This document shows positions 1-15,900 of a stretch of DNA of 64,000 nt, piece by piece. The position numbers and the translations under genes are program-made. The notes under the pieces are model-generated. The model did not search any database and was not told the origin of the DNA. It saw nothing but the letters and a program-made list of their open reading frames with translations. The number at the start of each line of letters is the position of its first letter. Within the stretch, counting starts at the first letter, position 1. This DNA is from Phycisphaerae bacterium (GTDB taxonomy: Bacteria > Planctomycetota > Phycisphaerae > UBA1845 > Fen-1342), in the NCBI GenBank assembly GCA_050115495.1, contig JASFQK010000013.1, positions 64,001-128,000 on the forward strand. The letters run 5' to 3'.

Positions 1-254
1 ATGTTCTCGTGGTGGTCGTGCTGAATGTCGAGCAGCTTGTCACTGAGCTGCCGGGCATGGTGGTTGTAGATGAGCGTGATGGTGCCGACGACCTCCTGGT
101 GCTCGTCGGCCCATTGCTGCTCGACGAGCCGCTCGCGGATCAGGTCGCGGATGTACTCGGAGCGGTTGGTGTAGCGGCTGGCCTTGACCAGCTTCGCCAG
201 TTGCCGCAGCAGCGGCTTTTCCAGCGAGATGCTCAGACGCACGAGATCGGACAT
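1..254 (-). CDS. nikR: Nickel-responsive regulator NikR (3' end runs off the window)
   Basis: Manual translation from ATG at 254: MSDLVRLSISLEKPLL...YTNRSEYIRDLIRERLVEQQW...VVGTITLIYNHHARQLSDKLLDIQHDHH. RHH N-terminus plus the NikR Y-x-H-H metal site. Not in the ORF track. Confidence 0.93.
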   Translation of the reverse strand, partial: MSDLVRLSISLEKPLLRQLAKLVKASRYTNRSEYIRDLIRERLVEQQWADEHQEVVGTITLIYNHHARQLSDKLLDIQHDHHEN

Positions 255-283
255 AGGCGAACCTCAACAAGGGCCACGGGCTG

Positions 284-312
284 CAGGCTAATGCGCTCTG
301 GGCTCCGCTTCA
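284..312 (-). promoter_or_regulatory. Putative sigma70 promoter of nikR
   Basis: Minus strand TTGAAG-17 nt-TAGCCT about 30 nt upstream of the ATG. Confidence 0.4.
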
Positions 313-385
313 ACCGGGTGGCGGGCGTTGGGTCTCCCGCGGGTGGCCAGCCTGGCGTGCGCCCGAGCGGGCGGGCCGCCGCGCG

Positions 386-422
386 AAAGAAGGCCCCGGC
401 GTGGGTTCACGTCGGGGCTTCC
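386..422 (-). terminator. Intrinsic terminator
   Basis: Minus strand GGAAGCCCCGACGTGAACCCACGCCGGGGCCTTCTTT: GC stem followed by a U-rich tail. Confidence 0.6.
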
Positions 423-668
423 GTGCAGACGGCGCCGGTGGAGGGGGGGCGCCGTGATGGAGTGGGAAGGACCAGTGGTTCCTCGGCGGGGCGTTGACGT
501 GCCCGGACGACGGCGGGTGCCGCCTGCCGCGTCGCCGTCAGCATACCGCCGGGAATGGCGTGCCCTGGAGACGCGGACCGGCTGGGAGGGTCCGCGCTCC
601 AGGGCGAGGAGGTACACACGATCGCGACCGCACGCGGGCCCCCGCACCCGCGCGGGCCGATTCACGCA

Positions 669-2270
669 TTACGGCTCAACGAGCAGGCCAACGAACGGCG
701 AGATGTCGAAGTTGTTCACCACACTGTCGCCGTTGCAGTCGCCGTTGAGGATATCGCACTCCGGATACGCCGCCGCGTACTCGGTCGGGTTGGTCACCGC
801 CAGCACGAACGGCGAGATGTCGAAGTTGTTCACCACGCCGTCGCAGTTCATGTCGCCGATGATGTTCGGTTCCAGCCACGTGACCCAGATGCCCTGCGGT
901 TCATAAGCACCGCTGCGAGCCTCGTACACGAGCATCATGCTGTCTTCATTCGCCTCGATCTCGCTCAACTCGGCCAGCGACTGGTCGGAGACGTCCATCT
1001 GTCCGTCCCACTCGCTGCCGGTGTACCACATGGACGTAGTAGAGGCGCCCGGGCCACTCAGCGCCGCCACGGCGTTCGAGTCATTCAGCATGCTCATCCG
1101 CACCGGACTGAGCGGGTCGAACGCCACATCCGGAAACTCCGCCGGCTGCCAGCCACCAGCGATCTTGTACGTGAGCGAGCAGAGTTTCTGCTCGCCGCCG
1201 ATGTAGACCGGCGTCAGCAGGGTGACGTCGCCCGCCGCGTTCACGACCACATCGCCGAAGTACTCCATGCCCGAGGCGCAGTCGAGCTCCAGCAGGTACT
1301 CCGCCGTTAGCCAGACACCGCTACACGTTCGACTTGCGCACAGCCAGGTCGTACCGCTCTCGACCCTCTCCCAGAACACCGTCGCGTCACCGTTGTCGTC
1401 CACGACGCCGCGCAGATGCCCCGGATTCTCGCCGAACACGACCGTACAATCGACTGCCTGTGGCACCGGCAGGCCCGGCTCCCACGCCAGATTGCTCGAA
1501 TCGAAACGATGCGCGTAGAGCCGAAACGCCCCCAGCATCTCGCGCGCCATGTAGAACAGGTACACCGCCGTGCCGGACTCGTTCTGAATGATAGTCGGCA
1601 ATATGCCGACATGTGTGCCAGTGGGAGCCATCGCCTCCGGCGTGCTCCATGCCGCTCCCTGTCCACTTGCCGGACACGTGCAACTGTGCACCTCCTCCAT
1701 TGCCACGTGCGCCTCGACCAGGTTTCCCGCCGAATCCACTCCGATGTTGAGCGACTGGATGTGAACATACCGCGCAGCATCGAGTGCCTCGTAGCCCACG
1801 GTCCATCCCGAACCGGGCACATAATGTGCCGCATTGACGAGGAAGAAGTCCATCTCGTACGTATCATGGCTCAGAAAGAGAAGCGTGATGTGGCCCTGCG
1901 GGTCAATCACCGCCGTGGACGCCAAGCCGATTGGCGCCACGTAGAACTCCATCCAATCGAACGCCGTCACGAAGTCCGCAGCGATGACTTCGGGGTCCTC
2001 CCACGTTCCCTCGCTCGCATCGAATCTCCGTGCAACCTGCTGGTACGTGCTCCCGCCGGGCTCTCCAGTGAATACCCAGGCGTCACCCTCGCTGCCGAAC
2101 AGCGTTGCCCCCAGGAGACTATAGGGCGCCGTCAGTTGTACGGGCTCCGCCCAGTGATGCGTCTCTGCGCCCCCGTTACCCCACGCCAGGCCGGGACACG
2201 CCAGACCGAGCGCGACTCCACACAGTACTGCCAGTATTACCCTGCGATTATGATCTCGTGATGTTCTCAC
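669..2270 (-). CDS. Secreted W-repeat (probable beta-propeller) protein with C-terminal dockerin-like domain
   Basis: Signal peptide; repeated ..R(F/Y)D..G.W..PE motifs; C-terminal [18 protein letters not shown]...[18 protein letters not shown]a-loop pair. Confidence 0.85.
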   Translation of the reverse strand: MRTSRDHNRRVILAVLCGVALGLACPGLAWGNGGAETHHWAEPVQLTAPYSLLGATLFGSEGDAWVFTGEPGGSTYQQVARRFDASEGTWEDPEVIAADFVTAFDWMEFYVAPIGLASTAVIDPQGHITLLFLSHDTYEMDFFLVNAAHYVPGSGWTVGYEALDAARYVHIQSLNIGVDSAGNLVEAHVAMEEVHSCTCPASGQGAAWSTPEAMAPTGTHVGILPTIIQNESGTAVYLFYMAREMLGAFRLYAHRFDSSNLAWEPGLPVPQAVDCTVVFGENPGHLRGVVDDNGDATVFWERVESGTTWLCASRTCSGVWLTAEYLLELDCASGMEYFGDVVVNAAGDVTLLTPVYIGGEQKLCSLTYKIAGGWQPAEFPDVAFDPLSPVRMSMLNDSNAVAALSGPGASTTSMWYTGSEWDGQMDVSDQSLAELSEIEANEDSMMLVYEARSGAYEPQGIWVTWLEPNIIGDMNCDGVVNNFDISPFVLAVTNPTEYAAAYPECDILNGDCNGDSVVNNFDISPFVGLLVEP

Positions 2271-2345
2271 CGAATGCTCCTTTCATTGTGCCAGCCCGCT
2301 ACGCTTCGGCTGGGCTCTGGACCCGCGGCTACTGCGTGCGACTGC

Positions 2346-4034
2346 TCACGGCGTTTCGCGCAGCCATGTCGTACGCACCGGGCTGTAGTCCCAGTCCTCA
2401 TGGTTCTCGTACATCAATACCGCCGTGCCCTGCGCCCCGGCCAGATCCTGGAAGTACACAACGCATTCCTCGGGTAGCGGTAGCAGGTCCGGCGACCAGG
2501 ACGTACCGTCGTATTCCAGAGACACCAGACGCGCGTAGCCGTCTACACTGGTCACTGTCGTTGCCACGGCCTTGTCGCCGTCGTAGAAGCACACGCGGCA
2601 GCGCGTCACGAGGGCCATGCTGTTTCGTACCGGATACTGGGTAGCATCCCAACCGACGCCCGCCCGATAGCGTACGGTGTGCAAGTACTTGTAGTTGTTG
2701 GCGTCGCCCGGAAGTCGATTGTTGACAGTGAACACCGCAATTACGTCGCCCGCGTCGTTGATGTCGATATCTCCCCACACCGTGAGGTCGGGCGAACTTA
2801 TCGTTACTATTCGCGACAACTCTGTGGGGGCTTGCCAGGCTCCGCCTTCCGTACGGCTGCCGCAGACCGTATGACCGTCAGGCAATGCTCGTCGCTTCGC
2901 CCACACGACAGTCGCCTCACCGGCTTCGTCCACAACGGCCAGACACCCTCGCGCGCTGCCGCCGTCGTCCCGAACGCCTATCGATCCCGGCAACATCTGT
3001 GGCGCGGACCACTGTTTCGTGGCGGTGTCATATCGGTTGGCGAACATCGCCCACCACAAATCTGTAGGTTGGCCAAAATACGTCACGAATGAGGCCTCCC
3101 GGCTGACGATCGGCTTGACGTAGAGCAGATAGACCGCGGTGCCGGAACGGTTGCCCACAACATCCACGGCCAACGTCAGCGTGTTTGGGTGCCCACCCAG
3201 TGGTACTGTCGACTCGCTCCACGTACCGGTGCCGGCATCATAGACCGCGCACACCAGGAAAGCATGATCGGGGTCGTTCCAGAGCATGGCGATCACGTTT
3301 CCGTCCTGATCGGCTGCCAGGGATATGCTTTGCCAGAACGCGTCCGTGGAATAGACCAGCACCTCCTCCGACCAGCCTGTTGCCGGTTCGTAGCGCTTGG
3401 CATAGGCGGAGTAGGCGTGTGGATCCTCCTCAATCTTGCGATACATGACCGTTATGTTGTCGTTCCGATCGATCGCAATCCGCCCGATCGGCGCCGCTGA
3501 GGGGTCACCGAACGCGTCGTGCCCTTCAGACTGGCGTGCCCATCCGCCATAGACCGCCCAGGCACGTCGCAAGCCATCGCCGCCGTTGTTGTTCTCGAAG
3601 AAGACACCGTCTCCGTTGAACAGAGTGCTGTCGCCGAAATCCTGATAGTCGTCCCAGTAGACGTCGCCGCGCGTCTTCCGCGTCTCTTTGCTTTCGCCGC
3701 CGGCTCCGTCGCCGAGACCGCCCACCAAGTCTCCCGGGTCGCGGGCCAGCAGTTGGCCCGTTCGGGCGTCAATGAGGTACCCGTTGTCGAGCAGAATCAT
3801 GTGGCCGGCCGTACGCGTGATCGCGGGCGTTTTGTGTTCGGGCGTTCGCAGCTTCCACACGGTGGCCCCGTGCGCGTCCACCGCCGACACCGCGCCCGGC
3901 CCCATCCTGAACGAGAGTCCCGCCACCGCCACATCGCCGGCGTCCCGTGGCGGCTGCTCCGCCGCCGCTCCGGCGACCCAAACGGCCACCGCGAGCAGGG
4001 CGATCACTGCCTGAATAGCGCTTCTACTTCTCAC
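2346..4034 (-). CDS. Secreted W-repeat propeller protein, paralogue without dockerin
   Basis: GTG start with AAGGAGG RBS; signal peptide; shares VVD..GEAT..W, RT.GG.WQAP.E and GD...N.AGD motifs with its neighbour. Confidence 0.85.
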   Translation of the reverse strand: MRSRSAIQAVIALLAVAVWVAGAAAEQPPRDAGDVAVAGLSFRMGPGAVSAVDAHGATVWKLRTPEHKTPAITRTAGHMILLDNGYLIDARTGQLLARDPGDLVGGLGDGAGGESKETRKTRGDVYWDDYQDFGDSTLFNGDGVFFENNNGGDGLRRAWAVYGGWARQSEGHDAFGDPSAAPIGRIAIDRNDNITVMYRKIEEDPHAYSAYAKRYEPATGWSEEVLVYSTDAFWQSISLAADQDGNVIAMLWNDPDHAFLVCAVYDAGTGTWSESTVPLGGHPNTLTLAVDVVGNRSGTAVYLLYVKPIVSREASFVTYFGQPTDLWWAMFANRYDTATKQWSAPQMLPGSIGVRDDGGSARGCLAVVDEAGEATVVWAKRRALPDGHTVCGSRTEGGAWQAPTELSRIVTISSPDLTVWGDIDINDAGDVIAVFTVNNRLPGDANNYKYLHTVRYRAGVGWDATQYPVRNSMALVTRCRVCFYDGDKAVATTVTSVDGYARLVSLEYDGTSWSPDLLPLPEECVVYFQDLAGAQGTAVLMYENHEDWDYSPVRTTWLRETP

Positions 4035-4045
4035 TGCTTTCCTCC

Positions 4046-4228
4046 TTAGCGATGGAGAGGCTCAAGAACACCGCTTGCGACTCCGCAGCCGCCGCGGCTT
4101 CCACAGGGGAGGTCCATCCCGCCGCCCAATCGGCGGCAGGTCTCAACTCGGATGGGGGCCGCCGTCTCGCCGCCAATCCCGCGACGAAACCGGTTACGGC
4201 CGGATGACTTGGTGAACGATAGGAGCAT
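4046..4228 (-). CDS. Putative conserved 60-aa leader/small ORF
   Basis: Ungapped homology with 9470-9667; its stop overlaps the downstream RBS. Confidence 0.45.
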   Translation of the reverse strand: MLLSFTKSSGRNRFRRGIGGETAAPIRVETCRRLGGGMDLPCGSRGGCGVASGVLEPLHR

Positions 4229-4312
4229 TCACTTCGTCCTCAGCTCCCATTCGGCGGCCCAGCTCCACACAGAGCCAGGGTTGCCGCCCCCTCTGATATT
4301 CGTACGATAACG

Positions 4313-4329
4313 GATTCTCCCTGAGAACT
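4313..4329. promoter_or_regulatory. Candidate operator palindrome (copy 1)
   Basis: GATTCTC-CCT-GAGAACT in the divergent promoter region; TATAAT at ~4376. Confidence 0.6.
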
Positions 4330-4395
4330 CAATCCAAAAATCACGAAAGTTCTGGCCTTTTGCCCTTCACCCCCGTATAATCGGCACCGAATACG

Positions 4396-5661
4396 GTGGA
4401 TACTATGGAAACAAGCACCGATACGAAACTTACCGGACCTACGGAACGGTCTGTTGGCCAGCGCATTTCCGCCGTCGGACGAGAGTTGACCACTGCCTTC
4501 GACGCGTTGGTCGCCGCCCTGCCCGGCCGAACACACAAGCCACAGGAACTCGCGCGGCTTCTCCACCTCGACAAGAACGTCACGCATCGGCTCGTGACGG
4601 CGATTCGCAAAGGTGATCCGCTCGCCACCGTGCATGCGATGCCCGGACCGGAACCTCTGCGACGCGTCGCCGCTGCCGCACGCCGCCATGCGGTGCCGGC
4701 CTCCGTCGCCGAGCGGGCCGAGCAGGCCATCGGGGCGTTCGAGGCGGTCATTAATGAGGGGGGCGATCGCGCCGGACTCGACGCCATCATCAGTGCCTGG
4801 CTACCGGACGCTCGCCGCCGATTCGAACGGCTTGCCAAGCAGTCGCTCTATCGTGGCGCTCGCCAGGTCAAAGGGCTCGCCGCCGACGTCAACTTCACCG
4901 CACACCTGATCCATCCGGCGGCAGACGCCGTGTGGTGTGATGCGGTGGACGTTTTCGGATACCTCGGTTTGCAGCGGATTCGCCCCGAGGCGTCGTTTAG
5001 CCTGGGCGTGCTTTGTGGCTCGTCCAACCCTGCCGCCTTGCCACGCACACTCACCGGCGAGACCGTCGAGGATCCGCATCAAACCCTGTGGCCGGAGTAC
5101 TGCTCACGCCCGGCCGTCGAGTTGACCGTCCATCAGATGCCGGCTGCCGCCGATCGCGTCTACGAGCTCAAGTGGAACGACGCCGTCGGCGTGAGTTCCG
5201 CCCGTGACGTCGTCATGCGGGAGTACATTCCGCAGGCGATGCGGGCGTCCCGCAATCCACAGACCGGACTGCGGAAGGCCGCGATCGAGGATTGTGTTAC
5301 GGTCCCCTCGAAAACCCTGATTCTCGATTTGCTGCTGCACAAGGACGTCTTCCCCGCCTGGCAACCGCAGGTCCGGGTCATGGAAACCGGCGCTCGCGGC
5401 CACGCCGATCCCAACGATCCGACGCGTGATTACGACGTCCTGCCACTGCTCGAACGCATCGAGCCACTCGGCCGCGGCGTCGGCCGCTTCCGGGCGGAGG
5501 AGATCCCGCACTACGTGGAGATGCTGGCCGAAGTGTGCGCCATCCGCGGCTGGAACCCCGACGACTTCCGCGGATTTCGAACCAGAATCGAATTCCCCGT
5601 GTTCAGCTCGCTGGTCCAGTTCGTCGTTACTTTGCCGGACCCACCGCCGTCAGCCGGGTAG
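4396..5661 (+). CDS. Uncharacterised ~420-aa protein with N-terminal HTH (putative regulator)
   Basis: PQELARLLHLDKNVTHRL looks like an HTH; long ORF (start may be ATG 4405); close paralogue at 10144. Confidence 0.8.
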   Translation: MDTMETSTDTKLTGPTERSVGQRISAVGRELTTAFDALVAALPGRTHKPQELARLLHLDKNVTHRLVTAIRKGDPLATVHAMPGPEPLRRVAAAARRHAVPASVAERAEQAIGAFEAVINEGGDRAGLDAIISAWLPDARRRFERLAKQSLYRGARQVKGLAADVNFTAHLIHPAADAVWCDAVDVFGYLGLQRIRPEASFSLGVLCGSSNPAALPRTLTGETVEDPHQTLWPEYCSRPAVELTVHQMPAAADRVYELKWNDAVGVSSARDVVMREYIPQAMRASRNPQTGLRKAAIEDCVTVPSKTLILDLLLHKDVFPAWQPQVRVMETGARGHADPNDPTRDYDVLPLLERIEPLGRGVGRFRAEEIPHYVEMLAEVCAIRGWNPDDFRGFRTRIEFPVFSSLVQFVVTLPDPPPSAG

Positions 5662-5955
5662 TCCCATCGCCGATCCTGGGGACTTCCGCGCCGACGTGCT
5701 CCCCCCGCTAGCGTAAGATGCGTGCGCCACGAGCCCACGCCCGTTTCGATGCCGGTCTGGCGTCCCCGCCCCGGCTCCCTGGGGGCGGGGACACAGCTCC
5801 AGCAACCAGACCATTGATCTCGAACATCCCCCCACGAGTCGTGCACCGTGCCCTGGAGACGCGGACCGGCTGGGAAGGCCCGCGCTCCAGGGCGAGGAGG
5901 CACAGAGGATAACGGCTTTGCGCAGGCGCCTCGCCCGCGCAGGCCGATTCACGCA

Positions 5956-7563
5956 CTACGGCTCAACGAGCAGGCCAACGAACGGCGAGATGTCGAAGTT
6001 GTTCAACACGCCGTCGCCGTTACAGTCGCCGTTGAGGATGTCGCATTCCGGATAGGCCGTCGCGTACGCCGCCGGATTCGTCAGCGCCAGCACGAACGGC
6101 GAGATGTCGAAGTTGTTCACCACGCCGTCGCAGTTCATATCGCCGGCGAGGCTCGTTTCCAGCCACCTGACCCAGACGCCCTGATCCTCGAATGCATTGT
6201 CGCGCAATTCGTAGACCATCAGCCGCTGAGTCTCATTACCGCCGAAGACCGTGGTCTGGCTGTACCAGTCTGCGGATGCCACGTCCAGCGGACCCTGCCA
6301 CTGGGCACCGTCGTGCCGGATCGTGCCGAAGACCATGTCGTCGCTGTTCAGGGCCGCGCACAGCGTGCCGTCTTCCAGCACACACAGACGCACCGTGCCG
6401 GACGTATCGAAGGGGATGTCGAGGAGTTCAGGAGACTGCCACCCGGCGCCGGCCTTGTACATCACCGAACACAGCCGGTACACGCCGTCGACGAACGCCG
6501 GTGTCAGCAACGTGACATCGCCGGCGGCGTTGACGACCGCGTCGCCGAATAATTCCATACCGGACGGGCAGTCCATCTCCAGCGGGTATTCAGGCGCCTG
6601 CCACACGCCCCCGTCGGTGCGGTTGGCACACAGCCACGTCGATCCGCCGACCGTCCGCTCCCAGAATACGGTCGCCTCGCCGTCGTCATCTACAACGCCC
6701 CGCAGGTAAGCCTGTTCCTCGCCGACCAGGAACGTGCAACCGGTGGCGCCCGGCACTGCCTCGGCCGCAGACCAGGTCAGCGTGTTCCAGTCGAAGCGGT
6801 GCGCGTAGAGCTGGAACGGTTGAAGCTGACTGTTGATGCTGGCCATGTAGATCAGGTACGTCGCCGTGCGTGCCTGGTTCTGGATGATCTTCGGCGACAC
6901 GGCCAATGCATAGGCGGGTGAGACCACCTGCGACGAGCTCCAACTCGTGCCATGGAAGCTCGCCTGACACGAAGAGCTGTAGACCTCTCCCTCGAAAGAG
7001 TGTACCTCGACCAGGTTGCCGAGGGCGTCTGCTTCGACGCTGATCGACTGCATGGGGACGTACCGGCCCATGGCGATCACGTTCACGTCGCTGTCCCATC
7101 CGATGCCAGGTCGGTAGTTCCGGGCCAGCACCTCCACCAGCCACAGGTCATCATCCCACGACGGATATACCAGTGTGATGTTGCCCTGCGGGTCGATGGC
7201 GCTGGCCGCTCCGTACCCTACCGGCATGAAGTCGGCAGGGGGCACGGCGGGGTCTACGTACTCGTCACTGAGAATTTCCGGATCCTGCCACATCCCCGTC
7301 TGAGCGTCGTATCGAATCACGTAGTCACGGTAGTGCTGGGCCGTTATGGCGCAGGTGCCCGTGAATACCCAGACGTTCCCCTGACTATCGACTTCGACGT
7401 CGTTGAGCCAGTAACTGCCTACCTGCGTCGCCTCGCCCCAGCGATAGGGGCCGGCGAACAGCGAGCTTGCGCAGCACAGCGCCAGCCCGATTCCCCATAC
7501 GTGCAGGCGCAATGTCCTGCGAATGTGCTTTTGTGATACACTCACGTGCATTCTCCTTATCAT
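5956..7563 (-). CDS. Secreted W-repeat propeller protein with C-terminal dockerin-like domain
   Basis: Paralogue of 669-2270 with an almost identical dockerin tail. Confidence 0.85.
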
Positions 7564-7715
7564 CTCTCGCGTTGATTCCGCGCAGTGTTATGATCCATGT
7601 TACGCTGCGTCACCGTACTGGTGATTCGGTGAGCGACCGCCTCGCCCATGCCCAACGCACGCGTCCCACGACTGGTTCACACCGCGCGCGGGTCGCGTGC
7701 CGACAACAGCGGTTC

Positions 7716-9473
7716 CTATGGCGCATCACGCAGCCACGTGCTCCGTCCCTCCCCCGTTAACCCCGGCTCATAGACCAGCACCGCCGTGCCTTGCGCGCCG
7801 CTCAGTGCCTGCATGTATATCTCGTCGACGCTGGGCAGAGCCAGCGGTGCCGCCGCCCAGGACGTTCCGTCGTACAGCAGGGATGTCAATTGCCAGGTGC
7901 CACCAACGTCCGTCATCGTCGTTGCCACTGCCTTGTCCGCGTCATAGAAACACACCCGCGTGCGCGTCCGCGTGAAGAATGGCTCACCCAGGCTGTAAGG
8001 CAGGTGATACTCAACAGGGCCCCAACCGACTCCGGCACGATAACGCACCGTGTGCGTCCAGGCTCCCCAGGGCTGCCCGTCTACCTCGTTGCCGGAGACG
8101 AAGGCTGCAATGATGTCGCCCGCCGCGTTGACGTCGATATCGCCCCATGGTTCCAGCGATTCGCTGTCGCCATCAACTTTGACCAGCTCCTCAGGCGCCT
8201 GCCAGACGCCTTGATCCGTGCGGCTTGCGCACAGTGTGGCGGCTTCCAGGTTGTAGACTCTCCGCTTCATCCAGAGCATGGTCGCCTCGCCAGCGTCGTC
8301 GACGACGACCAGCTTCTGCCCTAGTGCGCCGCTTTGCGCAGTGGCAGGAATCAGTTGCGGTGCGGACCACGTCCTGGTAGCCAGATCGAGCCGATGGGCA
8401 TAGTAGGCTGCCTGAGGATATGTGATTCGGCGATCGGAGAGATACTTCTGGTAGAGCAGGTACACGGCCATGCCCGAGCGATTACCGACCACCTCCGGGT
8501 TCGACATGAGTCCTGAACGCGCCCCGAACGGAATCGGAAGCTCGGTCCAGGTGCCCGCGGCCGCATCGTAATACATCGAAAGGGCGGACGAGCCCTCCGC
8601 GGTGCCGACGAGTTGAAGCACCAGAACCACGTTCCCATCTGCGTCTGCCGCTGCCGAGGCGATGCTATCTGTGTTTCCGGAAATCGCCGCATTCGCGCAC
8701 ACCACGGTCGGTGTCAACCAACCGGTCCCGGGTTCGTACCGGACGGCGTACATCGTCTGGACGTCGTTTGGCCTGCCTGTCGCGAATACGGTCAGGTTAT
8801 CGGAGGGGTCGAGCGCATAGGTGATGTAGGCAACGTCCACATCCTCAACGCTCAGGATGGGTACGGCGTCACCGAAAGTCTCATGACCCTCGGATCGACG
8901 AGCGAGAATGCCGAGGTGGTCGTTCACGTTGGCGCTGTAGAAGAGCCATGCGTGACGCAATCCCTGAACGCTGTTGTTCTCAAAGGCGACGCCGAAGTGG
9001 GATATCGAGCCAAGTGATTGCAGTGCACTCCAGTGGGCAGCACCACGCTGCTCTGTCGCTCCGTGATCGCCGTTCTCGCCGTGATCCGCGCCGGCGTTGC
9101 CGTGCGACCCGGGAGCGTACTGCTTCGCAGCCAGGATACGCCCACCGAGCACGTCGATGATCTGGCCATTATCCAACTCAATCATTCGGTCGCTCAGACG
9201 GCTCCACGACGGTGTTGTCCGCCCGTACGTAGGCATGCGCCAGGCCGTTGTGCCGTCCGGCCGGACCGCCTTCAAGATGCCCGGCTCGGCAACGAGGCTG
9301 ATCCCCTCCGAGAACCCCTGTTTCTGGGTTGCTGCGGGTGCCGGTGCGGCAGCCCCTCCGATCTGACCGCCCGATGCCGGCCCGTCCTTTGGCGGCGCCG
9401 CGAGCGCCGTCGCCAGCGCGGCCGCTGCCGACACTAGCGCGACCACTGCCCAAATACCAGTACTACTTCTCAC
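7716..9473 (-). CDS. Secreted W-repeat propeller protein
   Basis: Paralogue of 2346-4034; same RBS context AAGGAGGAAAGCAGTG. Confidence 0.85.
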   Translation of the reverse strand: MRSSTGIWAVVALVSAAAALATALAAPPKDGPASGGQIGGAAAPAPAATQKQGFSEGISLVAEPGILKAVRPDGTTAWRMPTYGRTTPSWSRLSDRMIELDNGQIIDVLGGRILAAKQYAPGSHGNAGADHGENGDHGATEQRGAAHWSALQSLGSISHFGVAFENNSVQGLRHAWLFYSANVNDHLGILARRSEGHETFGDAVPILSVEDVDVAYITYALDPSDNLTVFATGRPNDVQTMYAVRYEPGTGWLTPTVVCANAAISGNTDSIASAAADADGNVVLVLQLVGTAEGSSALSMYYDAAAGTWTELPIPFGARSGLMSNPEVVGNRSGMAVYLLYQKYLSDRRITYPQAAYYAHRLDLATRTWSAPQLIPATAQSGALGQKLVVVDDAGEATMLWMKRRVYNLEAATLCASRTDQGVWQAPEELVKVDGDSESLEPWGDIDVNAAGDIIAAFVSGNEVDGQPWGAWTHTVRYRAGVGWGPVEYHLPYSLGEPFFTRTRTRVCFYDADKAVATTMTDVGGTWQLTSLLYDGTSWAAAPLALPSVDEIYMQALSGAQGTAVLVYEPGLTGEGRSTWLRDAP

Positions 9474-9667
9474 TGCTTTCCTCCTTCATATTGGAGAGGC
9501 TCGAGAGCGCCGCTCGCGGCTCCACAGCCGCCACGGCTTTCAGAGGTGGGATTCGCCCCGCGGCCCGATCGGCACCGGGCCTCAATTTGGCAGGGGCCCG
9601 GCGCTTCATCGCCAAGTCGGCGACGAAACCGCTCACGCCCGGACAGCCTAGTGAATGGCAAGTGCAC
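9470..9667 (-). CDS. Putative conserved 65-aa leader/small ORF
   Basis: Homologous to 4046-4228; its stop overlaps the downstream start (GTGA). Confidence 0.45.
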   Translation of the reverse strand: MHLPFTRLSGRERFRRRLGDEAPGPCQIEARCRSGRGANPTSESRGGCGAASGALEPLQYEGGKQ

Positions 9668-9795
9668 CTACTTCGTCCTTCGTTCCCGTGTGGCTGCCCG
9701 GCTTCGCCCAGAGGCCGGCCCCTCGGCGCGGGAGGTCCATGAGCTGCATGGAACCTGCTGGCGCCAGTGCCCATCCTGATATTCGCACGTTAGTG

Positions 9796-9812
9796 AATTC
9801 TCCCTGAGAAAA
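9796..9812. promoter_or_regulatory. Candidate operator palindrome (copy 2a)
   Basis: AATTCTC-CCT-GAGAAAA followed by AATCCGAAAATC. Confidence 0.55.
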
Positions 9813-10050
9813 CAATCCGAAAATCGTAAAAACATGGATTATCGAGACTACGCCTCCAGGCCGTCGGTGTCGAATGAGATTTCTGCCGGGGAAGCAACTC
9901 GGGCACTGGAGTGCCGGGAAACTGCGATCGAGCGTTTAATGGCTTATTTTTCAAGGACGGCGATCCCGGAGAGGCTGTCGCACAAGGATGTCTTCCTCGC
10001 CTAGCAGCCAAGAGGTCGCGTCATGGGGGCAGGTGGGCGTGTCTGTATCA

Positions 10051-10067
10051 GATTCTCACTGAGAATC
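10051..10067. promoter_or_regulatory. Candidate operator palindrome (copy 2b, perfect)
   Basis: GATTCTC-ACT-GAGAATC followed by ATCTAAAAATCAC; TACAAT at ~10114. Confidence 0.65.
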
Positions 10068-10143
10068 GCATCTAAAAATCACCATTCTAAATGGACTCTT
10101 CGAAAATCTACTTTACAATGATGCGGAGAGGAGAGCACAAACA

Positions 10144-11400
10144 ATGAGGACGGCAATCAACCTGGAAGTCGGCGGACCGAGCGATCATTCCGTCGGCGAG
10201 CTCATCTGTGACGTCGGGCGCGAACTGAGCAGCGCTTTCGACGAGTTGATTGCAGTGCTTCCGGAATCCGCTCGGAGACCACAACCGTTGGCCCAGTTGC
10301 TCGGCCTCGACAGGAACACCGCCCATCGGTTAATGACGGCGATCCGCAAGGGCGACCCCTTGGCCACCGTTCACGCGATACCCGGCCCGGAGCCGCTGCG
10401 CCGCGTGACGGCGGGCGCGCGACGCCACTTCGTTCCCACCCCGATTGCGGAGCGCGCTGAAAGAGCGATTGGGGCCTTTGAGGCGCTGATCAACAATGAG
10501 GGCGGCGACCGCGCCGGACTCGACGCGATCATCAGCGCCTGGTTACCGGACGCACGCCGCCGCTTCGAGCGGCTGGCCAAGCAGTGGGTCTACCGTGGCG
10601 CCCGGCAGGTCAAGGGGCTGGCCGCGGATGTCAATTTCACCGCACATATGATCCATCCGGCGAGCGCACTGTGGTGCGATGCAGTGGACGTCTTCGGCTA
10701 CCTGGGACTTCAGCGGATTCGGCCTGAGGCTTCGTTGCGATTGGGGGTCTTCAGCGGTTCGACACACCTTGAGGCCGGGCCACGCACGCTCAACGGCGAG
10801 CTCATCCAGGATCCGCATGAAATCCTGTGGCCGGAATACTGCTCACGCCCGCCGGTCGAGTTGACTGTGCACCAGATCCCGGAGGGCAGCAGGCGGGTCT
10901 ATGAGCTGAAGTGGCACAAGGCTGTTGGTGTGAGCTCTGCCCGAGACATCGTCATGCGGGAGTACATGTCGCAGGCAATCCGGCGGTGCCGGAATCCGGA
11001 GACGGGACTGCGGAAGGCTGCGATCGAGGATTGTGTCGCTGTGCCGACGAAGGCAATGATCCTTGACGTGCTGTTGCACAAGGACGTCTTTCCCGCCTGG
11101 CAACCGCAGGTCCGCATCATGGAGACCGGTGCCCGCGGCCACGCCGACCCCAACGATCCGACGCGTGATTTCGACATCCTGCCGCTGCTCGAGCGCATCG
11201 AGCCGCTCGGCCGCGGCGTCGGACGTTTTCGGGCGGAGGAGATCCCGCACTACGTGGAGATGCTGGCGGAAGTGTGCGCCATCCGCGGCTGGAACCCTGA
11301 CGACTTCCGCGGTTACCGAACCAGGATTGAGTTCCCCGTGTTCAGCTCGCTGGTTCAGTTCGTCGTCGACTTGCCGGACCCACCGTCATCCGCTACGTGA
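10144..11400 (+). CDS. Uncharacterised ~420-aa HTH protein (paralogue)
   Basis: PQPLAQLLGLDRNTAHRL; RBS GAGGAG; highly similar to 4396-5661. Confidence 0.82.
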   Translation: MRTAINLEVGGPSDHSVGELICDVGRELSSAFDELIAVLPESARRPQPLAQLLGLDRNTAHRLMTAIRKGDPLATVHAIPGPEPLRRVTAGARRHFVPTPIAERAERAIGAFEALINNEGGDRAGLDAIISAWLPDARRRFERLAKQWVYRGARQVKGLAADVNFTAHMIHPASALWCDAVDVFGYLGLQRIRPEASLRLGVFSGSTHLEAGPRTLNGELIQDPHEILWPEYCSRPPVELTVHQIPEGSRRVYELKWHKAVGVSSARDIVMREYMSQAIRRCRNPETGLRKAAIEDCVAVPTKAMILDVLLHKDVFPAWQPQVRIMETGARGHADPNDPTRDFDILPLLERIEPLGRGVGRFRAEEIPHYVEMLAEVCAIRGWNPDDFRGYRTRIEFPVFSSLVQFVVDLPDPPSSAT

Positions 11401-11434
11401 GGTCCTGCCGGTGTCTTGCCGGGGGGCTTGCGAT

Positions 11435-11525
11435 CGGAGAGGGGGGGATTCGAACCCCCGGTAGAGCTTTGACGCCCTACGACGGTTTAGCAAACCGTTG
11501 CCTTCAGCCACTCGGCCACCTCTCC
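11435..11525 (-). tRNA. tRNA-Ser(GCT)
   Basis: GGAGAGGTGGCCGAGTGG...ACGGT-TTGCTAA-ACCGT, long variable arm, GGTTCGAATCC; CCA not encoded. Confidence 0.96.
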
Positions 11526-11768
11526 AGGCGGCGGCGGGCGTGCCCGGCGGGCCGCGTCCGCATGCGCTCGGACCAGCATACCGCCGACCCGGGCCCCGGA
11601 CAAGCCCGCTGGCCGGCCGAGTGCCGGGCCTGCGGTCGCGACTCGGTACCGTGGCGCATAAAATGCCGTTTTTCGGCGACCGATGGGACCCCGGTTCCCG
11701 ATTGCTGCGGCGTCGCCGGCCGGCTCCCGCTTAGATGCGACGACCGACCAGGCACGAGGGACGCAACC

Positions 11769-12785
11769 ATGAAGCACCTGCCCGACCCACAGCTCAGCTT
11801 CGAGCCGCTGACACGCATGCTCTACGGTGCGATTCCGTCCAGGCTGTTGCTTGCGGCCATCGAGTTGGACGTGTTCTCGCACCTGACCCAGCCCCTGTCC
11901 GCCGAGGCGCTCGCCCCCCGGATGCACGCTTCGCCGGAGCGAGCAAGACCGTTCCTGGATGCGCTGGTTGCCAACGACCTGCTGGAGAAGCGCGCCGGCC
12001 GCTACGGCAATACGCCGATCGCGGAGGCCTTCCTCGTCAAAGGGCGGCCCACGTACCTCGGTGACGTGTTCCTCAACATCAGCGGGTACATGCAGCCCGC
12101 CTTCGAGGCGCTGACGGCGTTGGTCCAGGCCCGGCCGGCGCCACCCGGAGAGCCCCGCCAGCCGGGCGGGCCCGATCCGGAAACCCAGATCTACGCCAAC
12201 TACCAGCGCGCCGGCCGCGCGCAGCAGGCGGCGGCGATGATCAGCGAACTCCCCGAGTTTCCCCGCATGAGGAGGATGCTGGACCTGGGCGCCGGTGCCG
12301 GCCTCATCGGCCTGGCCATCGTCGCGGCCCATCCGACGATGACCGGCGTGCTCTTCGATCGGCCGGACGTCGTCCAGGTCGCGCAGCAGTACATCCACGA
12401 ATATGATCTGGCCGACCGCGTGACGACGATCGGCGGCGACTACGCGGTCGATCCGATCGGCGACGGTTACGACCTCATCTGGTCCAGCTACACGCTCAAC
12501 TTCCAGCGCGGCAATCTGGACCCGATCATGCACAAGATCCGCGCGGCCCTGACCCCTGGCGGCGTCTATGTCAGCATGTCCGAGGGCCTGACCCAGGACC
12601 GCACCAAGCCCGCCACGCTGGTCAACTCCATGCTGGCGCACAGCCTCGCCGGCAGCGAATTGACGTTCGACGACGGCGAGATCGCCCAGGCGATGCTGCG
12701 TGCCGGCTTTCGGTCCGTCCACAGCCGCCACGCGGCCAGCCCCTGCTGGCACGGCCCCGTGGTCGTCGACATCGCCCGACCATAG
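11769..12785 (+). CDS. SAM-dependent O-methyltransferase (dimerisation domain + Methyltransf_2 type)
   Basis: LLAAIELDVF dimerisation region; MLDLGAGAG SAM motif; LFDRPDVV. Confidence 0.88.
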   Translation: MKHLPDPQLSFEPLTRMLYGAIPSRLLLAAIELDVFSHLTQPLSAEALAPRMHASPERARPFLDALVANDLLEKRAGRYGNTPIAEAFLVKGRPTYLGDVFLNISGYMQPAFEALTALVQARPAPPGEPRQPGGPDPETQIYANYQRAGRAQQAAAMISELPEFPRMRRMLDLGAGAGLIGLAIVAAHPTMTGVLFDRPDVVQVAQQYIHEYDLADRVTTIGGDYAVDPIGDGYDLIWSSYTLNFQRGNLDPIMHKIRAALTPGGVYVSMSEGLTQDRTKPATLVNSMLAHSLAGSELTFDDGEIAQAMLRAGFRSVHSRHAASPCWHGPVVVDIARP

Positions 12786-12975: not shown

Positions 12976-15900
12976 ATGGGGAATCCGTCGTTGGGCAGCG
13001 AGCTGTTCGCCAGCGGACTCGCGGACCACCGCGCGGTCGAGATTCCCGCGGAGCTCGACGCCGCTGCCCGTACGCGCTTCGTGACGCTCATCCGCACGGC
13101 GGTTGAGAAACAGGCGGCCCTCGCCAAGCAGCACCCCAAGATTCTCCGCGTCGATCCGCAGATCGAGGCCGACAAGCACCGCGTCGTGATCCGGCACGAG
13201 CCGGCCAGCCCGGCGGACGCCGCCGCCATCGTCGCCGCCGCGCCGCAGGCCGACCTGACGACGCTCTGGTGGGTCACCGCGTCGCTGGTGCCGGCCCTGG
13301 CCGCCGGTCACGAGCAGATGCTGGTCCACGGCGGCATCCACAATGGCGTGCTGTTCCTCGACCGTAGCGGTTGCCTCAAGGTCGGGGACTTCGGCATCGC
13401 GCCCGTGTACGAGGTCGTCTGCGGCGGGCGGGAACGCCGCCGCGTGGCCTGCATCATCGAGCCGGGCGGCGGGGCCGAGCGCGGCGCCAGCTCGGGGCGC
13501 TGGGCCCTGCTCACCGAGGACTCGCGGCGGCCGTACGGCTGGATCGCCCCGTATTTCTCGCACGAACTGCTGGAGAGCGAGGATCTCCGGCTCAACCCGA
13601 AATCCGACCAGTTCGCCCTGGGCACGCTGCTGTTCCTCTGGGCGACCGGCACGCACCCGTACGGCGCCGCCCTCGACGATCCATCGCTGAACTTCTACTT
13701 CCATTTCGAGCCGTTCGCCCTGGAGGAAGAGCGGCCGGAGTGGGCCGATGTCTTCAAGAAGCAGCGCAGCGGACTGACGTCTGCCACCGACCGCCCGCTG
13801 TGCGCCTGGGCCGATCTGGTCCGCCGGCTGCTCAGCAGCGAGCCGGCGGAGCGTTTCGCGAACATCAAGGAAGCGGGCGAGACGATCACCGAGCACGTTT
13901 CCGACTCGTGGGGTCGGGCGGTGCAGGCCATCAGCGCGGCCCTCGTGGACCTGGACGCCGGCCAGCCCGAGGCGTTTCTCACGCAGGTGGAGCCTTGTGC
14001 GGCTGACGACTCGCTGCCAGCGCCGTGGGCGACACGGCTGGCGGCGCTGGTCGCCGACGTGCAGGCCCAGAAGGACGTCATCATCCGCCGGAAGGAACTG
14101 GCGGCCCTGCTTCACCAGGCGGAAGAGACCTTTGCCAGTGGCGACCTGGAGCAGACCCGCCGGCTAGCCGAGGAAGCGGCCGCCGATCCGGCGGCGGACG
14201 ACGGGCTGCGGGACCGCAGCGCGGAGCTGCTCAGCGCCTGTCAGGAGCGCGAGGAGATCATCGAGCAGGCGGTTCGCGCCCAGGCCGACGAGGTCTTCAA
14301 CGCCGCCCGGCAGGCACTCGGTACGCAGGACTTCAACGATGCCCGACTCTGCCTCAATGCGCTCGTCCAGGACGAGGCCACGCCCGAGGCGATCATCCAG
14401 GAAGCTCGGCAGTTCCTCGATGAGATTGATCGCATCGAGCAGGACCACCGTCGCCGATCGGCCGAGTTGGACCAAGTCCGCCGCGACCTCTCCGGCGGTG
14501 AGCTGGATGCGGCGGAGCAGCGGCTGTCGGCACTGCGGGGTGAGGAGGGGCTTTCGGACGAGATGGCCGCGGCGGCCGGGCAGCTCGCGGATGAGATTGC
14601 GTCGCAGCGTGAGCGTCTGGCCGCCAGTCGGGCCGCACTGGACGCCGCCGAGTTGGCCTGGGAGGCCGCGGACCCGGCGGCGATGCAGGAAGCGCTCGCC
14701 GGCGTGTCGGCCGACCTCTGCGTCACGGAGATTGTGGAGCGGCACCAGGACCTCGCTGATCGTGCCGACGCCCTCGCCGCCACCATCGCGCAGCGGGACA
14801 CCGCAGAGCGCGTGCTCGCGGAAGGCAACGCGGCGGCGGCGGCAGCGGTGCTGGCCCGCGCCCTCGAAAACGCGACGTTGCCCGCCAGTCTCCGCCAGGA
14901 ACTGACCGAAGCCGCCGAGCACACGCAGGAAGTGCTCAGAGAGCAGCAGCAGCAGGCCGCGGACAACGCTCGCGATAGCCTGGCCCAGGCCGAGAGTGCC
15001 TTCGTCGCCGGCGACGAGGGCGCGGCCCGCGCGATCATCGAAGGCGTCGTGCTCGGCGCGCCGCATCTGCCCGACGAGCTGCGCAAGACCGCCGAGAAGT
15101 TGCAGGCTCGCTGCGACCGCTTCCGGGCGGCGACGGCGACGCTTGGCGAGATCGCCGACAAGCTGGGTCAGGATGAGCTCGATGCGGCGGCGGCATCGCT
15201 CGAACAGGTCGATACCGCCGGTTTGCCGGAGACGATCGAAACGCAGGCCGCCGACCTGCGACAGCAGCTTGCTGAGGCTCGCCGGCTTTTCGCCGAACGC
15301 CAGCGGGAGCGCCTGGCCGGTCAGATCGAAGACGCCGGCCGGCGGCTGGCCACGGGTGATGTCTCCGTCGAGCCGGTTCTGCGGGAAGTCGCGGGTTCGC
15401 CGCACTGCGACGCGGAGCTGACGAATCGCGTCGCCGCACTGCGGGCGGAGCTGGAGCAGGCGAAGGCCGTCACCAGCACGCTCGCCGCCGCCGAGGCCGC
15501 ACTCGCCCGGGACGATATCCAGGCGGCGCAGACGCTGCTCGCCAAGGGCGGCAAGGTCGAAGGCGAGCGGCTGGCGGCGCTGCCGGCGGAACTGCCCGGC
15601 TGGGCGATCAAGCGCGCCACCCAACTGCGGAAACGCATCGCCGAGGCTGAGGCCGAACGCCGCCGAAAGGTGCTGGCCGCGTGGCGGGCCGATCTCGAAG
15701 CTGCCGAAGCCGCGCTCAACGCCGGCGATCACGCCAAGGCGAAGCCGCTGCTGGCTCGTACCGGCAGCGATCTCGAACTGGACGAAGCACTGCATGCCCG
15801 ACAGGAGAAGCTGCAAGCGCTGGCCGCGGCGCTGGCGAAGTGCATGCCGCAGATCGAGGCCCTCGAGCAGCGCCTGCTTCAGGACGATGTTCACGCCGTC

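Follow-up and report, generated by a model that had tools for sequence, protein, structure and literature searches.

Two tandem gene modules from a Phycisphaerae bacterium encode ~420-aa proteins that likely belong to an unnamed and apparently undescribed family of one-component regulators in Planctomycetota. The best overall explanation, to which we assign a probability of about three in four, is that these proteins are dimers, each acting through its own palindrome, located at the facing tagged gene's promoter, with "tagged" meaning that the product carries a PEP-CTERM or dockerin-like tail. Four things are read directly in the sequence: how the genes are arranged, the palindromes themselves, the constant distance between these and -35/-10-like hexamers, and the way residues covary with bases.

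Layout of the tandem copies

The window, by which we mean the whole 64,000-nucleotide stretch analysed, is the forward strand of positions 64,001-128,000 of contig JASFQK010000013.1 (assembly GCA_050115495.1). An earlier note had proposed a tandem duplication in the order D <- P <- ~60-aa ORF <- palindrome -> regulator (R), where D is a dockerin-tailed propeller and P a tail-less one. Both copies are present with this gene order and these strands, and the four secreted proteins are paralogues as claimed (P versus D, 26-32% identity over partial alignments). The features are as follows, numbered within the window.

559..612, minus: long hairpin 3' of D1, a possible terminator or stabiliser
669..2270, minus: D1, with signal-peptide-like N terminus, beta-propeller and type-I-dockerin-like C-terminal tail, without N-terminal extension
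2346..4034, minus: P1, with signal-peptide-like N terminus, beta-rich N-terminal extension and beta-propeller (fold by homology to P2), without dockerin
4030..4274, minus: conserved 5' leader, copy 1, including a 60-codon ORF (4046-4228)
4304..4332, minus: P1-D1 operon promoter (predicted, sigma70-type), TTGAGT - 17 bp - TATCGT
4314..4328, unstranded: predicted operator ATTCTC-CCT-GAGAAC, within the P1-D1 promoter spacer
4353..4381, plus: predicted R1 promoter, TGGCCT - 17 bp - TATAAT, read from sequence
4396..5661, plus: R1, with HTH-like N-domain and beta-sandwich C-domain; predicted recognition helix DKNVTHR
5847..5900, minus: long hairpin 3' of D2
5956..7563, minus: D2, propeller with dockerin-like tail; the database start lies 6 codons later (529 aa)
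7716..9473, minus: P2, with N-terminal extension and beta-propeller, without dockerin
9469..9713, minus: conserved 5' leader, copy 2; its ORF (9470-9667) has a stop overlapping the P2 start
9787..9815, minus: predicted P2-D2 operon promoter, TTGTTT - 17 bp - TAACGT; the spacer contains operator A (9797-9811)
9915..10040, plus: third regulator copy, a decayed remnant flanked by operators A and B
10052..10066, unstranded: operator B, ATTCTC-ACT-GAGAAT
10092..10119, plus: predicted R2 promoter, TGGACT - 16 bp - TACAAT
10144..11400, plus: R2, 418 aa; predicted recognition helix DRNTAHR

Identity between copies is 79% for R1 and R2, 47% for D1 and D2, and 40-41% for P1 and P2. The module called self-contained in the earlier note holds up as a duplicated unit but not as a self-contained one, since the genome has 57 regulator paralogues and the propeller homologues in 7 related genomes are lone genes. 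The decayed third regulator copy is a 50% match to R1 residues 293-334 with one internal stop. A tRNA-Ser gene lies 37 bp 3' of R2.

A probable regulator family beside genes for tagged, likely surface-exposed proteins

The 57 full-length paralogues in this genome, compared with 1-11 found in relatives, have a median pairwise identity of 27% and variable recognition helices. The family takes in 2,343 Planctomycetota clusters (E<=1e-10) and has no curated model. The regulators had no match at cut-off in Pfam, NCBIfam, PADLOC or PDB-sequence searches, and in the ESM Atlas they matched only unnamed Planctomycetota clusters by features, with no usable named match for the C-domain. No paper describing the family was listed in topical searches of the openly accessible literature.

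The regulator gene is divergent from its upstream gene in 47 of the 57 paralogues, compared with 30% of other genes; 10 are not divergent. Of the 57, 38 lie opposite a tagged gene, 29 with a PEP-CTERM tail and 9 with a dockerin-like one, and a tagged neighbour is found in 44/57 when the second gene is counted. All these neighbour counts come from a home-made gene caller, with PEP-CTERM tails recognised by a regex. The background rate of tagged genes is 1.9% of genes and 6.5% of divergent genes, and 38 of the 115 divergently starting tagged genes in the genome face a family regulator. When 28 regex-called PEP-CTERM targets were checked, 21 matched PF07589 or TIGR02595 (E<=0.01) and 17 passed the curated cut-off. 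The divergent linkage of regulators to tagged secreted genes, for which a neighbourhood survey had been proposed, is conserved across the family, and the facing proteins are likely surface-exposed. Pairing of a regulator with propellers was not seen in relatives; it is the link to tagged genes that is general, and propeller pairs are only one among many cargo types.

The structure model of R2 (pLDDT 93) consists of helices (residues 17-157) followed by a beta-sandwich (159-409), with helices 46-53 and 57-68 joined by a short turn. The N-terminal HTH suggested previously appears in the model, but all HTH profile matches fall under curated cut-offs. The IclR HTH profile (E 0.034) and PDB 5tjj (E 0.12) match the N-domain, several HTH models match in up to 7 of 93 family members scanned, all sub-threshold, and no Pfam XRE profile matched in those 93 members (E<=0.05). 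By fold, the N-domain resembles Cro/XRE/HigA/ChiS structures (Z 5.3-7.1; for XRE, 3f6w, 3trb and 2ict at Z 5.3-5.8), the best-scoring DNA-binding fold being that of ChiS's DNA-binding domain (7kpo, Z 7.1, rmsd 3.0, 92 aligned), and plain helical bundles score equally (6n63, Z 7.1; talin, Z 7.0). The N-terminal helix-turn-helix of the model is weakly supported.

The C-terminal domain, which the earlier note could not assign to a known regulator family, has no profile match. It is an Arg-rich beta-sandwich with conserved residues R191, R193, R392 (invariant in 57), D179 and D308, and residues 155-410 best match 6s7o_E (Z 11.2, rmsd 3.8, 186 aligned), followed by 3kd4 (Z 10.8). This fold is shared with the M1 aminopeptidase N-terminal domain, ribophorin I and DUF3857. 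Identity to these is 6-9%, and the family lacks the catalytic domain and has the sandwich fused to the predicted HTH; an aminopeptidase reading was rejected because R1 and R2 have no HExxH and only the N-terminal beta domain aligns. Among Atlas models the same fold (TM 0.54-0.65) is seen next to domains of TIR, deaminase, LuxR-HTH and phosphoesterase type, and the aminopeptidase-N-like sandwich may here have a new sensor role. No clear membrane span was found in the regulators (median max KD19 1.15; >1.6 in 5/57), and no receiver or kinase model matched. As modelled, an HTH with a second soluble domain and neither kinase nor receiver is the general one-component architecture.

Several known families were compared with this one. 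Members of the IclR family act locally on divergent genes, and their C-terminal effector domain is alpha/beta and GAF-like. Our proteins would share such local divergent regulation and show a weak N-terminal HTH similarity, but the effector domain is unmatched in Pfam and the C-domain is an all-beta sandwich. The ChiS DNA-binding domain has a beta-sheet between its HTH helices and is always C-terminal (PMC8092284), whereas the HTH modelled here is N-terminal and without that sheet. Controller (C) proteins are small and HTH-only, with ~74-aa subunits and operators 15 bp apart, lie beside restriction-modification genes and are cotranscribed with a restriction endonuclease; their distal operator activates via sigma70 at the -35, while repression comes from another operator that covers the -35 (PMC2504287). 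The family is like them and Cro/C1 (XRE) regulators in its predicted HTH dimer on a palindrome, and at most loci it has the C-protein operator geometry. Unlike C proteins, its 420-aa members include a 250-aa beta-sandwich, have sites ~11 bp apart and neighbour tagged secreted genes, their predicted targets, and no XRE model matched.

Control of PEP-CTERM genes is known from Proteobacteria, where PrsK/PrsR/PrsT act with an upstream DNA motif and a single regulator, PrsR, serves globally as the sigma54 enhancer-binding response regulator, partnered by a kinase. The founding paper (Haft et al. 2006, PMC1569441) left other lineages open and stated that additional regulators and DNA motifs had yet to be found. 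The present family shares with PrsK/PrsR a predicted dedicated transcriptional control of PEP-CTERM genes via an upstream motif. It differs in consisting of dozens of local one-component proteins with differing sites and sigma70-like promoter hexamers, and no sigma54-interaction, receiver or kinase domain matched, which sets it apart from that system. The family, with its local regulators, predicted operators, promoter geometry and specificity residue, is a candidate answer for Planctomycetota.

Predicted operators and proposed mode of regulation

The palindrome reported earlier, TTCTC-N3-GAGAA, lies at 4315 and 9798, with a previously unmentioned third copy at 10053. The 5.97-Mb genome has it only 12 times, and 4 of these copies lie upstream of family genes. 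The copy-1 operator is 24 bp upstream of the predicted -35 of R1, and operator B is 25 bp upstream of that of R2. Across the family, a 14-15-bp palindrome lies upstream of the regulator. A near-consensus promoter directed away from the regulator is found at 27 of 57 paralogues, compared with 127 of 880 control regions, and, with that promoter as the sole anchor, a palindrome end falls 0-4 or 11-15 bp upstream of it in 25/43 family loci versus 24/127 controls; TTC/AAA peaks repeat about every 11 bp. Most family loci have the strong site abutting the -35 of the surface gene's sigma70-like promoter (the activator position). The window copies instead have it two turns further down, filling the 17-bp spacer (the repressor position); the site also fills the spacer at C26, L001 and L002. 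The target promoters of the window copies score only 8/12 and are unlisted by the consensus scan.

One base pair of the palindrome also covaries with one residue of the predicted recognition helix, which together with the divergent linkage supports, family-wide, the earlier proposal of an undescribed one-component regulator facing secreted genes. A hydrophobic residue in the helix goes with T:A at 29 loci, with mixed bases at 4 and with C:G at none, and a polar one with C:G at 14, mixed at 4 and T:A at none. These counts come from the loci from which the site pattern was derived and are not phylogenetically independent, nearly all T:A loci forming one clade with ~3 independent switches on a quick tree. 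Newly fetched loci gave TTTC for KV helices (2/2), TCTC for S/N/D helices (3/6, the other 3 without a site) and GCTC for HRT helices (1/2), with no cross-class matches. Outside the W-type loci, a site is present at 51/97 where 5.3 are expected (two diagnostic bases unscored), and the remaining 46 have none at that threshold. We infer that a hydrophobic helix residue would specify T:A and a polar one C:G. Given this covariation and the tagged gene faced, each regulator is likely the private on/off switch of the gene that it faces. At the 43 W-type-like loci the common consensus is weaker, aTTTC-N2-GAAAt (IC 9.8 versus 7.9 shuffled), so many paralogues may cross-bind rather than be private. One family member, L034, comes from Fontivita pretiosa, which is in culture, and has a site scoring 12/12 that adjoins TTGACA-16-TACGAT, so the prediction is open to test now.

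In the proposed mechanism, the N-terminal HTH would read the 14-15-bp palindrome as a dimer. Since the strong site at most family loci ends 1-4 or 11-15 bp upstream of the -35, most family regulators would activate sigma70 RNA polymerase from within an 11-bp-phased array, and would damp their own expression once a further site over the -35 fills. R1 and R2, judged from position alone, would repress the P-D operon from the spacer site, and they would autoregulate through that operator, or through operator B as its duplicate, placed 24-25 bp ahead of the regulator's own -35. The Arg-rich beta-sandwich may take up an anionic small ligand, by which DNA binding would be released or retuned. At the window, the predicted product is a heterodimer of P and D propellers, which the dockerin-like tail of D would keep at the surface.

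The sign of regulation at the window could be the reverse if R1 and R2, bound in the spacer, twisted the DNA in the manner of MerR proteins and so activated. The spacer-filling sites at five loci and the activator position held by most of the family are compatible with this, but MerR target promoters have a spacer of ~19 bp, longer than the optimal 17 bp here, and no MerR model matched in the profile searches; we consider it unlikely. That the beta-sandwich binds no ligand and only oligomerises along the 11-bp array, each locus being a noisy self-reinforcing switch and cells varying their surface coat at random, seems quite improbable. Arrayed sites overlapping both divergent promoters, conserved residues common to paralogues with unrelated cargo and the lack of a clear membrane span would suit such a switch, but a sensor or interaction domain that can move between proteins would be expected to occur, as this fold does, beside TIR, deaminase and other domains. 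An enzyme of a mobile element, be it recombinase or transposase, with the palindromes as recombination ends and surface genes as cargo, is scarcely credible: the copies are many and dispersed, one is decayed and R2 ends near the tRNA-Ser gene, but no recombinase, transposase or defence model matched, such folds are absent from the top structure matches, the copies are only 27% identical, a tRNA lies within 6 kb of only 6/57 paralogues, and the sites sit at fixed promoter offsets rather than at element ends. Dimeric regulators on their own palindromes remain our preferred reading. A decidedly unlikely extension of it has planctomycetes control their surface proteome by combining up to ~57 local switches, a one-residue/one-base code, a previously unrecognised Arg-rich sandwich sensor and self-reinforcing 11-bp arrays into independent on/off states of individual surface proteins in each cell; if true, coats would vary combinatorially with no rearrangement of DNA, and the family would offer a ready-made orthogonal set of sigma70 regulators.

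Propeller pairs and the leader

Structure comparison confirmed a beta-propeller in P2. The top Foldseek matches were 6rgr (E 3.8e-11), 7esk (E 6.9e-11) and 5mul (E 2.1e-10), at rmsd 6-7 A and 11-15% identity, and by Z, WD40 propellers ranked above PLL/PHL lectins and GH145/PL enzymes; lectins, lyases, hydrolases and WD40 proteins are all matched to a similar degree, which makes the receptor/lectin role proposed earlier one candidate among others. P2 resembles PLL/PHL seven-bladed lectins and GH145/PL enzymes in fold, but P and D differ from them in the N-terminal extension, the dockerin-like tail and the paired subunits. A homologue search returned 3 matches, 2 of them this genome's own proteins. 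Propeller homologues in 7 related genomes occur as lone genes, and the 10-16 kb fetched there contained no regulator. P and D come from a single-gene ancestor, of which P retained the N-terminal extension and D the dockerin.

Two lines of evidence favour the claim of a two-subunit propeller: a complex model scoring 0.63 (best control 0.00), a mark reached by 116/157 solved pairs and 2/215 mismatched pairs, and loops at the modelled interface that are longer in all four P subunits and in these alone. The runs share at least 47% of contacts, partner pLDDT is at least 81, and one of three runs scored 0.43. The model may mirror an ancestral self-interface, as it was built from the overlapping alignments of two homologous chains. 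P and D could then be independent paralogous surface proteins, in line with relatives that make do with a single propeller gene; but the domain losses are complementary, the P-only loops lie at the modelled interface, and the two lineages were passed on as a pair four times (support 99 for D, only 67 for P), so we regard independence as somewhat unlikely. At loci C9 and C7, a distant regulator paralogue stands co-directionally before the propeller pair.

The D tails have duplicated DxNxDG loops, the duplicated calcium-binding loop-helix of type I dockerin (PF00404). D1 and D2 match below cut-off (E 0.06 and 0.18), and a paralogue tail that clears the Pfam cut-off shares 68% identity with that of D2. 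There are 157 dockerin-like tails in the genome; a non-cellulosomal cohesin-dockerin "planctosome" has been proposed (PMC6461901).

The ~60-aa leader ORF, proposed earlier as a functional peptide, is open in both copies but has no coding signal. The leaders are 73% identical without indels, and the ORF follows a conserved GAGGA-type site and in copy 2 overlaps the P2 start with its stop, as a peptide might lead one to expect. Against this, differences fall evenly over codon positions (19/15/18), pN/pS is 0.77 compared with 0.24-0.32 for the regulators, and searches of the other family loci and of 60-100 related genomes were blank or gave matches at chance level, making a regulatory or signalling peptide that serves as ligand of the regulator very improbable. 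A hairpin covers the P1 Shine-Dalgarno sequence, and substitutions in two leader hairpins preserve pairing (two sequences, too few for covariation). This pattern would fit an RNA role, in which translation may at most open the Shine-Dalgarno hairpin. The leaders do not fold more stably than shuffles (z -1.1 and -0.9), and an Rfam scan of 1-12000 found only tRNA and nothing credible in them. Long hairpins also lie 3' of the D genes at C9 and C7 and of two dockerin genes at C53.

Layout of the duplicated module

The earlier note had described two tandem copies in which a palindrome separates a ~420-aa protein from a pair of secreted propellers, and both copies are present in that arrangement:

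669-2270, minus strand: D1, secreted propeller with a dockerin-like tail
2346-4034, minus strand: P1, secreted propeller without dockerin
4396-5661, plus strand: R1, predicted regulator
5956-7563, minus strand: D2, secreted propeller with a dockerin-like tail
7716-9473, minus strand: P2, secreted propeller without dockerin
9915-10040, plus strand: fragment of a decayed third regulator copy, between operators A and B
10144-11400, plus strand: R2, predicted regulator

R1 and R2 are 79% identical, D1 and D2 47%, and P1 and P2 40-41%; sequence comparison bears out that all four secreted proteins are paralogues. The palindrome TTCTC-N3-GAGAA occurs 12 times genome-wide, including window positions 4315, 9798 and 10053 (the last two being operators A and B of copy 2), and a fourth family-linked occurrence lies upstream of the closest R1/R2 paralogue, on contig C26. 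The decayed regulator fragment, lying between the operators, accounts for the extra palindrome in copy 2.

A tRNA-Ser(GCT) (11434-11526, minus strand) lies 37 bp past R2 and is a possible integration boundary, although no more than 6 of the 57 regulator paralogues in the genome have a tRNA nearby. Further downstream are an O-methyltransferase (11769-12785, plus strand) and a 1646-aa protein (12976-17916, plus strand) that has long helical repeats and, at its N-terminus, a weak kinase-like domain.

The regulator family and its fold

In a profile search the source genome yielded 57 full-length paralogues (median pairwise identity 27%) plus one fragment. Among 50%-identity representatives the family comprises 2,343 clusters at E<=1e-10. 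Homologues with a name come from Phycisphaerae and the Atlas clusters from Planctomycetota, which points to a planctomycete as the source. Matches occur in 31 of 36 genomes of the same taxonomic family (at least 1-11 per genome, with at most 29 candidates scored), in 1 of 24 belonging to the order's other families, and, phylum-wide, in 10 of 151, the source genome counted. A GTDB scan yielded 58 loci, mostly in Planctomycetota records and one from the cultured Fontivita pretiosa. One member with a perfect TTTC-type site (L025) comes from a record titled Pseudohongiellaceae, which may reflect mis-binning or transfer. No Pfam, NCBIfam or PADLOC model matched the regulators at cut-off, and among the papers listed by topical literature searches none describes them. 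The family is real, large and without a name; its operators are predicted, its specificity code can be tested, and its members would be one-component regulators. Their ligand, whether R1 and R2 repress or activate, and the function of the cargo are matters that we infer.

The AlphaFold regulator model is confident (pLDDT 93), with helices at 17-157 and a beta-sandwich at 159-409. The sandwich resembles ribophorin I (Z 11.2, rmsd 3.8, 186 aligned) and the DUF3857-type protein 3kd4 (Z 10.8), and its matches include the N-terminal domains of aminopeptidases; the HExxH motif is absent from the regulators. Conserved polar residues are chiefly basic (R190, R191, R193 and R392, the last invariant across the 57 paralogues), plus D179, D308 and H312. 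The helical part matches the ChiS DNA-binding domain (Z 7.1) and XRE and HigA proteins (Z 5.3-5.8). Plain helical bundles match as well, so the fold alone is no proof of an HTH. Atlas models pair the same sandwich (TM 0.54-0.65) with TIR, deaminase, LuxR-HTH and phosphoesterase domains, and it is possibly a mobile sensor domain without a name. ESM Atlas proteins of other phyla with this fold include TIR, DUF4062, dCMP-deaminase-like, metallophosphoesterase, LuxR-HTH and HTH-plus-peptide-deformylase types.

Predicted operators, promoters and targets

Family genes carry an AT-rich palindrome roughly 110-260 bp ahead of the aligned protein start, and its class goes together with the predicted recognition helix. 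Helices of the form DKV(L/I)xxR (KV) accompany AGTTTC-N3-GAAACT at 28 of 35 loci (7 without a site), S/N/D types accompany ATTCTC-N3-GAGAAT at 12 of 26 (1 of another class, 13 without), and HRTLASR (HRT) accompanies ATGCTC-N3-GAGCAT at 2 of 2. Later-fetched loci, duplicates removed, had sites of their own class in 2/2 (KV), 3/6 (S/N/D) and 1/2 (HRT) cases, with zero cross-class matches. When the two diagnostic bases were left unscored, sites were found at 51 of 97 loci outside the W type, against 5.3 expected from local shuffles; in these 51, V/A/I helix residues go with T:A (29, mixed 4, C:G 0) and S/N/D/T with C:G (14, mixed 4, T:A 0). In a quick C-domain tree the T:A loci mostly form one clade, with further switches at L036 and at L008, which sits inside the clade of R1 and R2, and therefore about three independent events are indicated. 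A methyl contact by a hydrophobic helix residue and a hydrogen bond by a polar one would account for this choice. Where helix position 7 is W, C or Y (43 loci), the shared consensus, aTTTC-N2-GAAAt, is weaker.

A near-consensus sigma70 promoter directed away from the regulator is found at 27 of 57 paralogues; among 880 control regions, 127 have one. With the -35 as sole anchor, TTC peaks at -37, -27, -15 and -4, and there are AAA peaks around -18 and -8; controls lack these peaks. Relative to the -35, 25 of 43 family loci have a palindrome whose end lies 0-4 or 11-15 bp upstream, versus 24 of 127 controls. In the C proteins described in PMC2504287, activation through sigma70 comes from a distal operator and repression from another that lies over the -35; the arrangement at family loci is the same, although the spacing is 11 bp rather than the 15 bp of C proteins. 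In the window, the site fills the spacer of the predicted target promoter in copy 1 (TTGAGT-17-TATCGT, 4332-4304) and in copy 2 (TTGTTT-17-TAACGT, 9815-9787), as it does at C26, L001 and L002. These spacer sites lie 22 bp downstream of the usual family position, and therefore on the same DNA face, and their position suggests repression. The single site of copy 1 doubles as a site 24 bp ahead of the predicted -35 of R1, whereas in copy 2 operator A is at the target promoter and operator B lies 25 bp ahead of the predicted -35 of R2; that both positions are retained fits dual use.

The divergence from secreted genes anticipated earlier held in the neighborhood survey, for which we called the genes ourselves: the gene upstream is divergent for 47 of 57 paralogues, versus 30% of other genes, and 10 paralogues are not divergent. 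A tagged gene is directly faced by 38 of 57 (PEP-CTERM tail 29, dockerin-like tail 9; background 1.9%), or 44 with the second gene counted. Targets scanned were 40 proteins, comprising 37 of the 38 facing genes and 3 first genes with a tagged next gene. Of 28 regex-called PEP-CTERM targets, 21 match PF07589 or TIGR02595 (E<=0.01), and a curated cut-off is reached by 17. The cargo includes HAF-repeat, DUF4394, FGE-sulfatase-like, FG-GAP, ELWxxDGT, beta-helix and GEVED proteins, and family loci of other genomes face the same kind of target. The closest described parallel is the Proteobacterial PrsK/PrsR system, which controls PEP-CTERM genes with sigma54 (PMC1569441). Of 4261 called genes >=100 aa in the source genome, ~157 encode a dockerin-like tail and ~154 a PEP-CTERM-like one.

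Leader and propellers

The 230-bp leader 5' of the P genes is 73% identical between copies with zero indels, a conservation exceeding that of the regulators' synonymous sites. The ~60-aa ORF that the earlier note placed here has no coding signal (pN/pS 0.77 versus 0.24-0.32 for the regulators; differences 19/15/18 by codon position). Within two hairpins every change between copies preserves pairing, and a hairpin with a variable loop covers the Shine-Dalgarno sequence. Folding showed no excess over shuffles, Rfam returned nothing for the leader, and a search for a third copy found none. The leader is best read as cis-acting, possibly with translational coupling, rather than as coding for a peptide.

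The P2 model has a small beta-rich extension and a propeller (pLDDT 82); PHL/PLL lectins, rhamnose-glucuronate lyase and Bacteroides glycoside hydrolases rank together in Foldseek, and the VIA ranking puts WD40 proteins on top. Modeling of the P2-D2 complex, with alignment rows common to both, scored 0.63 (best control 0.00), a mark reached by 116 of 157 solved pairs but just 2 of 215 mismatched ones. Agreement between runs is 47% of contacts or more, and partner pLDDT is at least 81. This model supports binding, and with it the two-subunit propeller proposed earlier, but does not establish it. At the modeled interface each of the four P proteins has longer loops than the D or single-gene forms do (25-36 residues against 19-22, and 10-11 against 4-8).

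Among 60 related genomes, 7 carry propeller homologues, as does contig C34; these are single genes that combine the extension, the propeller and a dockerin-like tail. The source genome has four P-D pairs (two in the window, one each on C9 and C7), in which P, one lineage, kept the extension and D, also one lineage, kept the tail. Because the loci of the 7 relatives have no regulator within the DNA fetched, and the C9 and C7 pairs have a distant, co-directional family paralogue, the specific regulator-propeller module is local to this genome.

A hairpin with a ~17-bp stem follows six dockerin-tailed genes (window 559-612 and 5847-5900; C9, C7 and C53), four of which are D propellers. The last 60 residues of D1 (672-850) match those of D2 (5959-6140) and the C9 and C7 D proteins at 54-56 positions, and those of two unrelated C53 genes at 51-52; the propeller bodies are 32-45% identical. 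Dockerin tails and downstream hairpin may have been homogenized or swapped by recombination.
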